A stretch of DNA of 64,000 bases. Source: Salinispira sp. Lineage in GTDB: Bacteria; Spirochaetota; Spirochaetia; DSM-27196; Salinispiraceae. Positions within the stretch are counted from its first letter, which is position 1. Each line of letters begins with the position of its first letter. Below, in pieces: positions 27,001-33,000 of the stretch. The position numbers were made by a program. The stretch covers positions 1,632,001-1,696,000 of the forward strand of contig OZ271918.1 in the NCBI GenBank assembly GCA_965602015.1. The letters are read 5' to 3'.

Positions 27001-30000
27001 ATCGTAAAACCGGAAAGCAGCCGCTGCTTTTCCGCCTATTGAGCTTTGCCGCCGTATCCAACGAGAAAGGCGCTGAGACCAGTGTATATCTGGCCGAGAG
27101 CCCCGATGTCGCGGGCATAAGCGGTGAATACTTTGCCAAGTGCAAGGTGGCACCGAGCAGCCCACGCAGCAAAGATGTTAAAACCGTCGCCAGGCTTTGG
27201 AAACTCAGTGAAGAACTCTGTAATCTTTCCTGATAATCGTGCAACGTTGTGCATATCGCGGGTGGCAGATAGAAAACCACACAGCGGAAAATCAGGAATC
27301 ATCCAAGAGGTATGGGCAAGGTGGATAGCGAACCCGACAGCGTAATCAGCCCCTATGAACATCATATGTCCGAGCTTGTGGTACAAACCCTCGATACGCT
27401 TTATCCGACCCAGGATATTCCCTTAAATCACCGCGACCCCTATACGCTGTTGATTGCGGTGCTGCTCTCAGCCCAATGCACCGATGCCAGGGTCAATACG
27501 GTAACCCCCGAGCTCTTTGCCCGGGCTTCAACTCCGCAGCAGATGTCCAGGCTTGGGGTAGAAGAAATCCAAAAGATAATCCGGCCCTGCGGGCTTGCGC
27601 CCACAAAGGCAAAGAACATACGTGCCCTTTCAAAAATCCTGGCGGAGGCAGAAATTCCCGAAATCGTGCCCAGGGATTTGACGGAACTCGAGAAGCTGCC
27701 AGGTGTCGGACACAAAACCGCATCGGTGGTGATAAGTCAGGCCTTCGGCATCCCGGCATTCCCGGTGGACACCCATATCCATAGACTGATGGCCCGGTGG
27801 GGTCTAAGCTCGGGAAAAAATGTCGTTCAAACCGAGCGCGATGCAAAACGCCTTTTCCCCCGCAGCCGTTGGAATGCCCTTCATCTGCAGATCATTTACT
27901 TCGGCCGGGAGTATTGCCCTGCCCGGGGACACGATGAAACTGCGTGCCCCATTTGCTGCCGGGTTGACGAGTACAAAGGGCGTTACCTCCGGTAAACCGT
28001 GCGCCGGATAGGATTTTCACCCGCCGTTCTATCGCTGCCGCGGCTGCTTTGACCAGGGCAGCTCTGGATCTATACCAGTTCGAGCACCGCCCCGGCGTAC
28101 GTGAACCCTCCGCCGAACGCCGTGAGTCCAAGGGTCTTTGCTGAAGATGAAGGATCATCGAGTATGCGCTCCAGACAGAGGGGGATGGTCGATGATGACG
28201 TGTTACCGTACACGGCAATCATGGAGTACACTTTTTTCTTGTCGACCTTCATACGCTGACGAACGGCGTTTATTATCCGCTGGTTGGCCTGGTGAGGTAC
28301 AATGAGATCCAGGTCATCGCTTTGGTACCCCGACTGCTCCGCCGCCAGCTCAAGCGACTTTATCATTGCCCGCACCGCCTTTTGGTATACCGCCGGCCCG
28401 TCCATGGTCACCACATCATCGGCATTTCCCTCCACTGCGGGAACGGTCAACGCCCGGTTTCGATCCGCCGCCGCAAGGGTGACCGGCCGGCGGATTATCA
28501 TTTTGGGAACCACATCACCCCCTTCGACGCAAATCAGACTTGCGGTAGCGGCGTCGCCGAATACCGGCGCGGTATCCGGGTCTGAGGTGTCGATTCTGCG
28601 GGAAAGCAATTCAGCGCTGATAATAAGCAGGGGCCGGTTCGCACTATCAGCCTGCATAAAATCATGAGCCTGCTGAAGGGCATAGATGTAGCCCGAGCAG
28701 GCAGCGGAAATATCGACGGCAGGAATTTCAAGCTCTTCATCGCCGGCCAGAGCGTCCAAAACCCGGCAGGCCAACGAGGGGGTTATTTCATCCGGAGTGC
28801 CGGTTGAACAGATTATGCCGCCGAGCTGTGCCGGTGCAATATGCACGTCGCTCAAGAGCTTTTTTGCGGCCTCAACGGCCATCGAGGTAAGGTTCTGGGA
28901 TTCATCGGCCCAAAAGCGGCTGCTGATTCCCGTGCGCTTGACGATGTCCTCGGGGCTCCAGGTGGGACACATTGTGGAGATTTCCTCATTGCTCACCACC
29001 CGCTTGCCGGTGACGCTGCGGACCCCGGCGATTCCCACCCGTTTAGCCGCAGCTGGGCCCGAGGAAGCCGTGCCGGTTTCTGTTGCGCTGTCGGCTTTTC
29101 CGCTGGAGGACAACCGGCGGAAACGGAACTGAATTTTCGGCGTCCCGGGCTCCTCCCGTGTGGGAGGTTTGGGAACCGCCGATGACTCGGTGAGAATCTT
29201 AATTAGCGGTTTACCGACAGCCACCTCATCGCCCTCCTCGGCGATAAAGGAGTCCACGGTGCCGGACATGGGGCTGGCGATTTCTGTAACGGCCTTGTCG
29301 GCTTCCACGCTGGCAACCAGCTGACCTTCTTCGATGACGTCGCCGGGCTTAACCAGATATTCAATTACCGTCACCATCTCATCGGACGGACTCGAGCCGA
29401 TAGCCTCTATGAGGAAACTGCCCTCCTCCGCTGCAATCGCTTTGTCCCACTCAATGCTGCCTCCCAGCAGATCGACTGCGGTTTCGAGTATGCGCTGATA
29501 TGAGGGCAGAACTTCGAGCTGATTGCCGAAGTTACACGGGACATAGGTATCATCGCGGACGACCCGACGGGCTTCGAATCCATCGGAAATAGCTTCAGAT
29601 AATTCTGCCAGCACCTCGGACGCAAAACCCGCAGATTTATTATCCTCATGGGCGATGATGATTTTGCGGGTTTTTTTCACAGACGAGATAACGCAGTCCT
29701 TATCCCAGGGAGAAAGGCTTCTGAGGTCGATGACCTCCGGCTCGACGCCTAATTCTTCAAGGGCGGCGGCGGTTTTGTACATGAGGGCCATGGTGTTCCC
29801 GTAGCCCAGGAGGGTTAAGTCGGAACCGCCTCGAACGATCCGCGCCTTTCCAATGGGTACAAAGTGATCACCGATATCTTCACTGGTTGCCTGAGCCCGA
29901 TCATTGAGACAATTTTTCGGATAATAAAACATGGTCGGTCTCCCCGATGCGAAACTCGCGTTCAACAGACCGGCGGCATCTCCCGCAGTAGAGGGCATCA

Positions 30001-33000
30001 CCACATCGACGCCCGGCGTGTGCACTCCCAAGGCCTCAAGACTGGATGCGTGAAAGGGTCCGAGACCGGGCTTGTACCCTCCGGAGGTAATCATGAGAAT
30101 GACCGGCGCCTGCCAGCCTCCATCGCTGCGCCAGTACATGCTGCCCATTTCGGAAAAAATCTGGTTGTACGCTATGGGGAGAAAGTCGGCGAACTGGATA
30201 AATCCTACCGGCCGGCCTCCGGCCAGCGAACGGCCCACGCTTACTCCCGCAATGGTTGATTCGCTCAAGGGGCTGTTCTGAACCCTGCCGGGATAGGCGG
30301 TGCTCAAACCCTTTGTTATGCCGAACACGTCCCCTTTGGGATCTTCAAGATCTTCGCCGAACAGGCTGACCCGTTCATCCTTGCCGAGCTGTAGCCGAAA
30401 AGCTTCCCGTATGGCTTCCAGCATGGTCACCCCGCCGGCGTTCCCGCGGTATTCTACTCTCGCCAGGTATTCCGGATTCAAAGGCGCCTTGGCATCGTGA
30501 ACCGCTGCGGGCTCGGGGCTTCTGCGGCTCGACTCTGCGGCTGCGCGCACCTGTTCGGCAACGTCTTTCTCCAGGGTTTCAAGCTCGGTTTCCGTCCTGC
30601 CCGATTCGATGAGCCGTTTTCTTGTGTGGGCGATGGGATCGCGGGCTTCCCGGACGTTGAGAATATCCTCTGAACTCCGGTAGACGCTCTGATCATCCGC
30701 ATTGGTGTGATTGGTTAGTCTGTCGACCTGGAAAATAACGATGGCGGGCTTGCGGTCATTCCGCATGGCTTCGACAATTTCGAATAGTTGGCTGTGGGCC
30801 GTTGCCAGGTCGCATCCGTCTATTCTATGTATGGGTATGCCGTAAAAGGAGTCCGCCTCTCCCTCAGGTCTTGAAAAAAATGTCTGGCCCCCGGTTTTGG
30901 TGGATATTGCGTAAACATTGTCTTCGATGAAATACAGAACCGGAAGATTCTCCCGTACAGAATGGGCTATGGATTCAAGGACTTCGCCTTCCTGGGTCAT
31001 ACCGTCGCCCAATGCGCAGAGCACCACCGGCGCACCGTCCCGGTCTTTTACTTCCGCAGCGATTCCCGCCGACGGAAGGGCATTATTCCCTACCGGACCG
31101 ACAAGACTGAGCACGTTGTGTTCCGGTGAGCTGATATGAGCGCTCATCTGTCGTCCCCGGGAATGCGAAGCATCCTTGCAGAACAAGCTGTGAAAAAACA
31201 TCTCGACGCTGACACCGCGGGCGATCATAAGCGCTTTGTCGCGGTAATGGCAGTGCAGCCAGTCCTGAGGTCCAAGAATATCCGCCAGGACGACAGATCC
31301 CTCATGACCCGCACCGGACACATGGAAAAATGCCTCGCCCCGCTTTGTAAAACCGTCCTCTAACCGGTCGAGTTCCCGGGCTTCAAGCATGTGGCGATAT
31401 AACGATATGAGGCGATCCTCAGTCAGATTACCTGATTTTGTTTGACTCATCGGTGCTCCTCCAGTGCTATCCGGCTCGGCGCCGGTCCTGGCCAGTATAT
31501 ATGATTGATATAGATAACTTCTACCGATATAACCGAATCTAATTCAGGTAAATAAAAAAATAACTTGATTTGCGACGGAGAATATCGAAGTATTTGGGTA
31601 TGACACTAACTTGTCCAAAATGCGGCCGGAGCATAGCCGGCGAAGATATTTCGGTAAAGGACGGTTTCGCCCAATGCGGCACCTGCAGATCGGTATTTAA
31701 TCTTTCCGAACTGGCAGCTCAGCGCGGTAATCGGCAAAGCGAACCAATGCCGTTCGCCCGCAAGTCGGAAGTGGGTATGCCAAAAAACTTCGAGAAGAAA
31801 ACGGATTTTGACGGGCTTACCATTGTGCGGAAATGGCGCGACCTGACGGCATTTATCCTTATTCCATTTTCCATATTTTGGAACGGTTTTTTGGCTGTCT
31901 GGATCAGCATTGCCATCTCCACCGGCGAATATATCATGATTGCCTTCGCATCCATACATATCGCCGCCGGAGTCTTTCTTGTATACAGCGGAATTGCGAA
32001 AATGATCAATCGAACCACGGTAAAGGTTAGCACTGGGGAACTCACGATTACACACGGTCCCGTCCCCTGGCCGTCACCGAAGCCCATTAGTCATCATCAG
32101 GTCCGTCAGGTGTACGGGAAGGAGCGGGTCAGCCGATCGAGCCGAGGCGGCACCAGTGTTCGCTACGAACTTCGTACCCTGACGACAGACGGGCGTGATA
32201 TCAAGTTGCTCAGCGGCTTGAATGACCGAGCGCAAGTTTTATTCCTGGAGCAGGAGATTGAACGCTACTGGAATATCAGCGATGAACGGGTCGGCGGCGA
32301 AATGGTTTGAGCGAATACTGCGGGGACTCATCCACAGGCTCACGGCCAATTACGAAGCACGACGTGGGTCTGCGCGCCAACGTCAGAGACTTCCCCAAAG
32401 CTCGCGGCCGAATATTCACGCTTCCGTCCTTTCATCGGCTAACTCGAGCGCGGGTAGCTGATCAATGGGAATCCACAACAGCCGGCGTTCATCGTCCAAA
32501 AGTCCCGCAGCCTGGCTGCGCGTTGCAACCAAGCGCCCGATTATGGAACCTGCCGGGAAGACAATTTCCTCGCCCCAACCTTGTTCGAGAACGGGTTTTG
32601 CCTCCGCGGGAATGCGCTCACCATCGTAGCCAATGATGCTGGGACTTGAAAGGGTGGGATTACTTCCCGGCAGCCGCCGAAAAAGCGTGGTTACCTGAGA
32701 GCTTCGCAACTGTGACCCGAACTCAAATCCGGCGACTTCATTTGCCGCCGGTGGTACATCTGATACCGGCACCGGGATAAAGAAATACCAGGGGTCGAGG
32801 GGACGGCGCCAACTGCGGTCGTAGATTCCAATGTGGAGGTGGGGCGGGCCGCCTAAGGCATTACCGCTGTCCTCTACGGTGCCAAGCACCACCCGGTCAT
32901 CGATGCGCTGGCCTTCGCGCAGCTCGCCATAGCTTTCCATATGGGCGTAATAGATCATAAGACCCCGCCATTCATCGCTGAGGCTGACGGTCCTTCCGCC

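Follow-up and report, generated by a model that had tools for sequence, protein, structure and literature searches.

A fused E1alpha-E1beta-lipoyl-KAS III protein of Salinispira as a probable acyl-CoA bypass in the initiation of branched membrane fatty acids

Which route does an acyl group take when the lipoyl arm that carries it is joined to a ketosynthase III and not to an E2 acyltransferase core? The question is raised by a gene in the window analyzed here, the whole 64,000-nucleotide stretch of contig OZ271918.1 from Salinispira sp., which encodes E1alpha, E1beta, a lipoyl domain and a FabH-type KAS III domain in a single chain. Branched-chain fatty acids determine how fluid a membrane is and are used as markers in taxonomy and environmental work; the textbook route to them requires a dehydrogenase complex of three enzymes together with acyl-CoA and a permissive FabH. 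The preliminary description of this gene proposed that the acyl group is handed directly from the lipoyl arm to the KAS III cysteine and so primes fatty acids. All sequence tests that we ran agree in direction with this proposal and support it as the most likely reading, in which the fusion probably bypasses CoA in starting branched membrane fatty acids. Literature searches aimed at the fusion or its mechanism, judged by title and start of abstract and with most subscription journals outside their range, found no paper about it. The gene is laid out as follows.

28070..31450, minus strand: whole gene of the E1alpha-E1beta-lipoyl-KAS III fusion, 1126 aa (open reading frame, Pfam, best-match survey)
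31456..31462, minus strand: Shine-Dalgarno-like GGAGGAG, with the ATG 5 nt further on (direct sequence reading)
30506..31396, minus strand: E1alpha (residues 19-315) with the ThDP/Mg motif GDG148-150...N178, Y69-R70, GRQM99-102 and H248 (PF00676; invariant in 120/120)
29468..30430, minus strand: E1beta (residues 341-661), E397 and H467 invariant (PF02779, PF02780)
29186..29419, minus strand: single lipoyl domain (residues 678-755), acceptor Lys719 in EADKA, codon 29294-29296 (PF00364)
29132..29170, minus strand: motif K-x-x-T-R-E-x-P-G-x-P-x-I (761-773), C-terminal to the lipoyl domain (conservation)
29051..29119, minus strand: Ala/Ser/Gly/Thr-rich flexible linker (778-800) leading to the KAS domain (pLDDT)
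28073..29044, minus strand: KAS III (FabH-type) domain (803-1126) (profile/alignment, model)
28697-28699, 28292-28294 and 28202-28204, minus strand: codons of KAS III C918, H1053 and N1083 (alignment)
28946-28948 and 28577-28579, minus strand: codons of D835 at the place of E. coli W32 and of P958 at that of R151 (alignment)

The reading frame is open, and the six Pfam ranges reported earlier were reproduced exactly: E1_dh 19-315, Transket_pyr 341-515, Transketolase_C 534-640, Biotin_lipoyl 693-752, ACP_syn_III 913-973 and ACP_syn_III_C 1038-1124. The Pfam search of the 1126-aa chain gave no match to PF02817 (E3-binding) or to PF00198 (E2 core), in agreement with the earlier statement that the E2 acyltransferase core is missing. 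A promoter and terminator scan gave no signal clearly exceeding shuffled sequence. The AlphaFold2 model of the whole fusion has a mean pLDDT of 91.8 and a pTM of 0.71; its E1beta matches 1um9_B with an rmsd of 1.6 A and its KAS domain matches FabH 2ebd with an rmsd of 2.2 A (TM 0.92, target length). The linker at 778-800, which ranges from 17 to 105 residues in length among the 120 sequences, is the sole stretch with a pLDDT under 50. In the motif at 761-773, E766 and G769 are conserved in 120/120 sequences, P771 in 119 and T764 in 118, with a strand predicted at 770-775; the motif may pack back on E1beta and anchor the lipoyl arm, a pairing that we infer. A homodimer is the likely unit, since E1 (alpha2beta2) and FabH are both two-fold dimers. 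Prediction of a complex between the lipoyl domain and the KAS dimer scored 0.00, which gives no verdict and counts neither way.

The six-family architecture is common to the best 120 matches (query included; 1096-1229 aa), as previously described, and a new alignment of these sequences, with E. coli FabH as the numbering reference, returned the same counts for EADKA (120/120), G[DE]G (120/120; 87 GDG, 33 GEG) and the C918/H1053/N1083 triad (120/120). The E1 residues N178, H248, E397 and H467 are likewise present in 120/120. Further out, the triad is kept in 33/33 distant members, and the lipoyl acceptor lysine, found in 120/120 near members, is kept in 62 of 63 diverse sequences. The characterization of the matches as mostly Spirochaetia reflects their ranking by closeness and does not extend to the family: besides Spirochaetia, the best 80 named loci include, by record title, Planctomycetota, Verrucomicrobia, alpha- and beta-proteobacteria, Sumerlaeota, Armatimonadia, Nitrospirales and one cyanobacterium, and across these many phyla the fusion is one open reading frame in 76 of the 80. 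The same-genus genome G280 has two copies, both frame-broken, as had been noted, which weighs against the proposed role. Shorter matches lie mostly on short contigs and were not counted as split genes, and none of 597 matching plasmid records spans 80% of the fusion protein. One family member, P0142, runs on into KR and ACP domains, and its tail is probably GNAT-like, as a lead only. Longer fused forms at large are represented by one weak KAS-only match among 7997 candidates, which is weak evidence. For lipoyl-linked KAS III, a quick tree of 106 rows hinted at two separate origins; this reading was dropped, since a single clade is not rejected in a test with 41 rows, where the constrained tree is 21 log units better (p-AU 0.80).

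Among solved structures, E1alpha is closest to the T. thermophilus 2-oxo acid dehydrogenase alpha subunit (145 bits), with 107 bits to the human branched-chain enzyme and 77 or less to pyruvate dehydrogenases. It has GRQMxxH, as in solved branched-chain enzymes, and besides the fusion no other GRQ-type E1 was seen in the 11 spirochaete carriers. In the tree, the fusion E1 is separate from the GRQLP-type Rhizobium enzyme and groups with Streptomyces polyketide starter E1s from biosynthetic clusters (SH-aLRT 97); its nearest relatives outside the family are from Streptomyces, with 36-38% identity over about 660 aa. We hold it rather probable that the fusion is a CoA-independent primer-forming enzyme, mainly for iso/anteiso fatty-acid synthesis. 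As we infer each chemical step, from substrate to product, the E1 part would use thiamine diphosphate to decarboxylate a branched 2-oxo acid and would load the acyl group reductively onto lipoyl-Lys719, and from this arm the group would pass directly to Cys918 of KAS III by thioester exchange. His1053 and Asn1083 would then support malonyl-ACP decarboxylation, and condensation would yield a branched 3-oxoacyl-ACP that enters the ordinary FAS II cycle, while the arm would be re-oxidised in trans by the housekeeping E3; acyl-CoA would never form along the route.

In FabH, W32 and R151 sandwich the adenine of CoA, a role that the preliminary description named and that is stated in PMC4606726. The earlier counts for these columns recurred among the best 120: the W32 column is D109/E7/G4 (W in 0/120), and the R151 column is P79/A19/G4/F4/E4/K3, where R is not one of the residue types listed. 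Both residues together occur in 0/33 distant members versus 46/52 stand-alone FabHs, six of which likewise lack the full pair. Compared with FabH (TIGR00747, PRK09352), the fusion domain shares the fold, the C-H-N triad, N247, R249, G209 and F304, but has lost the acyl-CoA primer site (W32, R151 and T28). It scores 228 against the TIGR00747 cut-off of 292, which it fails, and 263.5 against the PRK09352 cut-off of 249, which it passes, and the fusion KAS IIIs form a separate long-branch group in trees (SH-aLRT 98-99). Pantetheine-arm residues are largely kept in near members (R36 114/120, N247 120/120), and therefore a pantetheine thiol, of ACP or CoA, can still enter. R249 and its neighbours, which we take to be the basic ACP-docking patch, are retained at 249 (120/120; R or K in 33/33 distant members) and 257 (R/K, 120/120), with K214 not kept. 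Lipoyl coupling does not need loss of the adenine site, because a second lipoyl-linked KAS III group mostly keeps an aromatic residue at 32 (W or Y in 6/7; R151 in 2).

The position of KAS III in the chain suggests a different role, which we regard as quite unlikely: as an E2 surrogate it would take the acyl group off lipoamide and pass it via Cys918 to holo-ACP (or CoA) with no condensation, leaving elongation to FabF/FabB. In the related systems of Streptomyces and QncN/QncL, an ACP is loaded through acyl transfer. KAS III takes the exact position of the E2 acyltransferase core, most plainly in a split form found in nature, where an E1alpha-beta gene is followed by a lipoyl-E3-binding-KAS III gene with KAS III in the E2 core's usual place. 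FabH also has an acyl-CoA:ACP transacylase side activity. However, H244 and N274 of FabH are needed for malonyl decarboxylation and not for transacylation, and their equivalents are kept in 120/120, 33/33 and, in the second lipoyl-linked group, 7/7. Transfer-only KAS III relatives such as ChlB6 and CerJ have a Cys-His-Asp triad, and the lost adenine site fits badly with transfer to CoA.

Partner genes were surveyed in the spirochaete carriers. An unlinked E3 gene is present in 11/11, versus 189/401 genomes of the same phylum sample, and a LipA-like match also in 11/11. The fusion is the sole PF08541 match in three of the 11 (G387, G293 and G390; 96, 99 and 93% complete), and FabD- and FabF/B-like genes are present in these three; another KAS III accompanies it in 8/11 carriers and in 5/5 named-locus genomes, a point against the proposal. 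The argument from a sole KAS III is weakened because absence of FabH is tolerated in some bacteria, with only 11 of 14 control genomes positive in the same search. E2 cores occur in all 11 carriers, with a weak extra stand-alone PF00198 match in five, and together with the retained pantetheine-channel residues this would suit mere co-expression, with a separate E2 core discharging the arm to CoA and KAS III taking acyl-CoA or acyl-ACP ordinarily. We consider this improbable. The full E2 cores in G000 and R. rhizogenes each adjoin their own E1. The stand-alone core in G000 adjoins a sulfotransferase; its relatives occur in 20/401 genomes, of which only one is a carrier, and in none of five other carriers (a search run without a positive control). 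The near-total loss of W32/R151 and the maintenance of one open reading frame over many phyla also argue against it. No E2 core tracks the fusion across genomes, and a dedicated E2 core in trans was rejected; neither an E2 core or E2-type acyltransferase nor a dedicated ACP lies next to the fusion in the loci examined. The proposal as a whole, with direct hand-over to Cys918, a branched 2-oxo acid and fatty-acid priming, is supported as the most likely reading by the intact triad, the selective loss of the CoA-adenine site (46/52 in the control) and the lack of a dedicated E2 core in trans. It gains support, too, from neighbouring membrane-lipid genes and from iso fatty acids that match it in one clade of Rhizobium.

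In Rhizobium, olsE precedes the fusion at 9/9 loci and olsC is close by at 8/9, and this neighbourhood is a membrane-lipid cluster. Among the carriers is the inoculant strain R. freirei PRF 81. The fusion marks the rhizogenes/tropici clade: of the 39 genomes closest to R. rhizogenes in recA, 38 carry it, versus 4 of 108 others; a family-wide sample around R. rhizogenes has it in 1/300. A term search of the olsC/sycA papers PMC3557214 and PMC5936775 found no mention of 'ketoacyl' or 'branched'. Species of the clade contain 1.1-14% C15:0 iso 3-OH and R. leguminosarum USDA 2370 none (PMC7656272, Table 3), yet R. leguminosarum still contains 1.2% iso-C17:0 (same source); C15:0 iso 3-OH is missing from the 3-OH entries given for R. 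tumorigenes and R. tubonense in the supplement of PMC5998023. Fatty-acid data come from species other than the strains named as carriers, and the gene-phenotype link is a single event because it involves one clade. Outside Rhizobium, neither a conserved operon or cluster nor conserved tailoring genes were found in 12 spirochaete and 80 named loci, and no lipid gene is a conserved neighbour. The neighbours that do recur, namely aconitase, NeuB, serS and the MsrB type, are limited to related spirochaetes.

The same hand-over could serve another purpose, using another 2-oxo acid or making a dedicated product (an acyl chain of lipid A or of an ornithine lipid, a small polyketide, an N-acyl amide or a head-to-head condensation product) in place of bulk branched fatty acids. 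The E1 grouping with biosynthetic clusters, the added domains of P0142 (its GNAT-like tail as a lead), the ordinary FabH retained in most carriers and the tropici-clade iso signal, mostly in the 3-OH acid (PMC7656272), all point this way. We nevertheless judge it unlikely, given the lack of conserved tailoring or cluster genes and the three genomes with the fusion as sole KAS III. Iso-C13:0 and iso-C15:0 are moreover major fatty acids of cultured Oceanispirochaeta (PMC11129491), a genus that includes carriers; the link is genus-level only. Returning to bulk branched fatty acids as the product, we give even chances to a broader claim: that acyl-lipoamide, and not acyl-CoA or acyl-ACP, is the ketosynthase primer donor in a distinct FAS II entry; that one horizontally movable gene confers iso/anteiso lipids and keeps branched acyls off the CoA pool; and that this gene is responsible both for the iso-C15:0 3-OH that marks the Rhizobium tropici/rhizogenes clade and for the branched lipids of many spirochaetes, planctomycetes and verrucomicrobia. 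If so, a CoA-free route encoded by one gene would account for branched lipids in genomes where an ordinary branched-chain dehydrogenase is not evident, and lipoamide would join the known ketosynthase primer donors. In rhizobia the gene sits in the olsE-olsC acid-tolerance lipid cluster. The fusion could also serve as a single-gene module for branched fatty acids in production strains.

Compared with the branched-chain 2-oxo acid dehydrogenase plus FabH of Bacillus, Staphylococcus and Listeria, the fusion has the same parts except the E2 core, with an E1 closest to solved branched-chain enzymes, a lipoyl arm, the FabH fold and triad and, presumably, the same end product. It differs in being a single chain with the CoA-adenine residues lost and acyl-CoA apparently bypassed, and its main family lacks the E3-binding domain that the split form has. 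Like BCKDH and PDH, it has the ThDP E1 motif, the catalytic residues and the lipoyl acceptor lysine, with E3 encoded elsewhere. A Streptomyces starter module (NZ_CP061282.1, NZ_CP108424.1), which we take to be streptogramin A-type SnaF/SnaE1 with an isobutyryl starter, pairs a fused E1alpha-beta gene with a lipoyl-E2-type acyltransferase-ACP-KS gene; PMC10006238 and PMC5636943 gave no information on its starter. It resembles the fusion in channelling acyl-lipoyl to a condensing line, but belongs to secondary metabolism, and its acyl group reaches a type I KS by way of an E2-type acyltransferase and then an ACP. In QncN/QncL/QncM (quinocarcin) and SclQ1-4 (scleric acid), ThDP E1-like and lipoyl domains feed a carrier protein without CoA (PMC6335953). 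These systems retain an acyltransferase of the E2 type, work on a ketose phosphate and supply an NRPS; their type of acyltransferase and dedicated ACP are neither in the fusion chain nor adjoining it, P0142 alone having an ACP, and in the acyltransferase's place the fusion has a ketosynthase.

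The fusion gene and two genes upstream of it in the window are:

28070-31450, minus strand: fusion gene, a single open frame encoding 1126 aa and preceded by a strong ribosome-binding site
31570-32310, minus strand: 246-aa protein upstream of the fusion, with an N-terminal Cys cluster, two hydrophobic segments and no Pfam match
34420-37011, minus strand: farther upstream, lipoprotein-like protein of 863 aa with ankyrin repeats and a tail rich in Asp

Pfam matches in the fusion chain cover E1alpha, E1beta (two domains), a single lipoyl domain and KAS III (two domains); neither an E2 core (PF00198) nor an E3-binding domain is detected. 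The same six families occur in all of the best 120 database matches (query counted; 1096-1229 aa), in agreement with the single chain without an E2 core given in the preliminary description. Of the best 80 named loci, 76 hold all four parts in one frame; in three more the frame breaks off where the contig or locus ends, and the last is split. The AlphaFold2 model, built from a 63-sequence alignment, has a mean pLDDT of 91.8 with one disordered stretch (778-800) preceding the KAS domain, and its parts superpose on FabH (KAS III, rmsd 2.2 Å) and on the T. thermophilus 2-oxo acid dehydrogenase beta subunit (E1beta, 1.6 Å). The E1alpha-E1beta-lipoyl-KAS III fusion is real and old.

In the alignment of best matches, E1 residues Y69-R70, G[DE]G148-150, N178, H248, E397 and H467 are invariant across 120 sequences. 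The lipoyl lysine is conserved in 120/120 near and 62/63 diverse sequences, and C-terminal to its domain lie a conserved motif (761-773) and a linker of 17-105 residues. The KAS III residues C918, H1053 and N1083, plus the equivalents of E. coli FabH N247, R249, G209 and F304, are likewise present in 120/120, in agreement with the intact Cys-His-Asn triad noted before. According to PMC4606726, W32 and R151 of FabH flank the adenine of CoA, T28 hydrogen-bonds to it, and R36 and two asparagines hold the pantetheine; this documents the Trp/Arg role named in the preliminary description. W32 and R151 never occur together in the 33 full-length sequences that represent the family at the 50% level (W in none, R in one); of the 52 stand-alone KAS IIIs which that search also gave and which lie outside both lipoyl-linked groups, 46 have the pair (fragments excluded from both counts). 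The fusion KAS III has therefore lost the part of the CoA site that binds the nucleotide, with the thiol channel and decarboxylating residues remaining.

We lean towards a mechanism, all of whose chemical steps we infer from sequence, in which a branched 2-oxo acid primes KAS III through the lipoyl arm. The E1 part would acylate the arm, which would pass the acyl group to C918; the KAS III domain would condense it with malonyl-ACP, and E3 would recycle the arm, acyl-CoA never being formed. For a domain retaining decarboxylating residues, action as a transacylase to ACP without condensation seems distinctly unlikely. The fusion E1alpha scores 145 and 107 bits against solved branched-chain enzymes, with which it has a GRQMxxH segment in common, 77 or less against pyruvate dehydrogenases, and only 56 bits against the P. 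putida branched-chain alpha subunit. The same hand-over chemistry with another substrate or a special product is a rather unlikely alternative. P0142 (1942 aa), a single homologous sequence, extends the fusion by KR, ACP and possibly a GNAT-like tail, making it a candidate one-chain mini-polyketide/N-acyl amide synthase. Since this fusion continues into KR and ACP, it hints that the KAS product may be an ACP-bound 3-oxoacyl group.

A second group of seven lipoyl-linked KAS IIIs keeps the triad and part of the CoA residues, and a tree test did not reject a single origin of all lipoyl-linked KAS IIIs. Its members P0204 and P0208 have the layout lipoyl - E3-binding - KAS III, that of an E2 subunit with KAS III replacing the core. 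Among metagenome loci with enough upstream DNA to be scored, a 657-659-aa E1alpha-beta gene precedes relatives of P0204 (L058, L059, L062, L063, L064), its E1 belonging to another lineage than that of the fusion. An amidohydrolase gene often lies downstream of this two-gene form (L058-L066). The nearest E1s outside the fusion family are Streptomyces cluster genes ahead of megasynthases that start lipoyl - E2-type acyltransferase - ACP - KS, two of them on plasmids:

L201:11983-26274: megasynthase right after a fused E1alpha-beta gene
L202:7914-17905: megasynthase right after a fused E1alpha-beta gene

This position ties the E1 group of the fusion to feeding biosynthesis, and the plasmid megasynthase start is predicted to be a CoA-bypassing starter module.

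At least 11 of 401 Spirochaetota genomes (each at least 90% complete) carry the fusion, a lower bound because four candidates were scored per genome. An E3 gene is present in 11/11 carriers versus 189/401 genomes overall, counts in which kin are not independent, and a LipA-like match, scored among the carriers, in 11/11. No second GRQ-type E1alpha was seen in the 11 carriers, in an alignment that left out large OGDH-like E1s and with the motif of one 834-aa E1 unread. Another KAS III accompanies the fusion in eight carriers; G387, G293 and G390 have no PF08541 match besides the fusion, yet encode FabD- and FabF/B-like proteins. The source genome, G000, has LipA and two ordinary FabHs, the latter with both W32 and R151. 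Its pyruvate dehydrogenase cluster is complete and includes lipoate ligase and E3; the genome also has another E1/E2 set, and a large E1 accompanied by E2 and E3 that we interpret as 2-oxoglutarate dehydrogenase. That an E2 acts in trans on the fusion, followed by ordinary acyl-CoA priming, is very improbable. G000 also encodes a stand-alone E2-like acyltransferase core of 274 aa, its DH...DG motif intact, beside a gene of the sulfotransferase family (L207:4140-6172; contig 3203139-3205171). This core was rejected as a fusion partner, as its relatives, in 20/401 genomes with just one fusion carrier among them, do not follow the fusion. A third KAS III-like gene of G000 (L003:5824-11242) has a changed triad, with T and Y aligned at the His and Asn positions, and neighbours thiolase, CoA-transferase, hydrolase and double TetR regulator genes. 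In the same-genus genome G280 we recovered two frame-broken fusion copies (L056:6826-10315 and L057:7698-9893; two and at least three breaks, ~70% DNA identity to each other), one with transposase genes nearby, matching an earlier remark that both copies of a same-genus genome are frameshifted.

In most genomes the fusion is solitary among unrelated neighbours, as expected because the enzyme would use housekeeping E3, ACP and FabD. Rhizobium departs from this pattern. In R. rhizogenes NBRC 13257 (L140:4729-11989) the fusion is flanked by olsE and olsC, each scoring above its NCBIfam cut-off, and a ClC gene is adjacent. olsE precedes the fusion in 9/9 Rhizobium loci and olsC is inside the retrieved flank in 8/9; the remaining 71 named loci have neither gene nearby. 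OlsC and OlsE are described as ornithine-lipid hydroxylases of R. tropici in PMC12971839; the tropici-clade acid-tolerance lipid cluster thus includes an unstudied 1107-aa lipid-primer candidate (R. rhizogenes).

The fusion occurs in 46 of 151 genomes of this genus, 45 at 89-100% identity. When genomes are ordered by how well their recA matches that of R. rhizogenes, carriers make up 38 of the 39 top genomes versus 4 of 108 others, four carriers without a recA match standing outside the ranking. C15:0 iso 3-OH reaches 1.1-14% in six strains of the R. rhizogenes/tropici clade (R. tropici, miluonense, hainanense, multihospitium and dioscoreae), and R. leguminosarum has none, with 1.2% iso-C17:0 (PMC7656272 Table 3). 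R. freirei, listed there among the closest species of those strains, carries the fusion. An ordinary GRQLP-type E1alpha is present in three non-carriers and absent from the five E1 matches of R. rhizogenes; R. leucaenae has both forms. The C15:0 iso 3-OH of these strains fits the prediction of lipoyl-arm priming, an indirect link between fusion and phenotype in one clade. PMC11129491 reports abundant iso-C13:0 and iso-C15:0 in Oceanispirochaeta cultures, which matches the proposed role at genus level only. A divergent copy in G712, a genome of the Rhizobium genus outside the tropici clade (L210:7284-10604; 53% in the lipoyl-KAS part, unrelated context), may have been acquired separately and would offer another natural test of how gene and phenotype are linked. 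The E1alpha of P0047, named Marinobacter halodurans and on an 11.8-kb contig, groups with spirochaete sequences, through either transfer or contamination.

Our searches of open-access literature found no description of direct lipoamide-to-ketosynthase priming. The fusion would work like a branched-chain dehydrogenase and FabH as a pair, yet it falls outside both classes, because it has no E2 core and its KAS III no CoA-adenine site. CoA bypass from E1 and a lipoyl arm is known from QncN/QncL and SclQ; the fusion lacks the E2-type acyltransferase that, according to PMC6335953, passes the acyl group to ACP in those systems.
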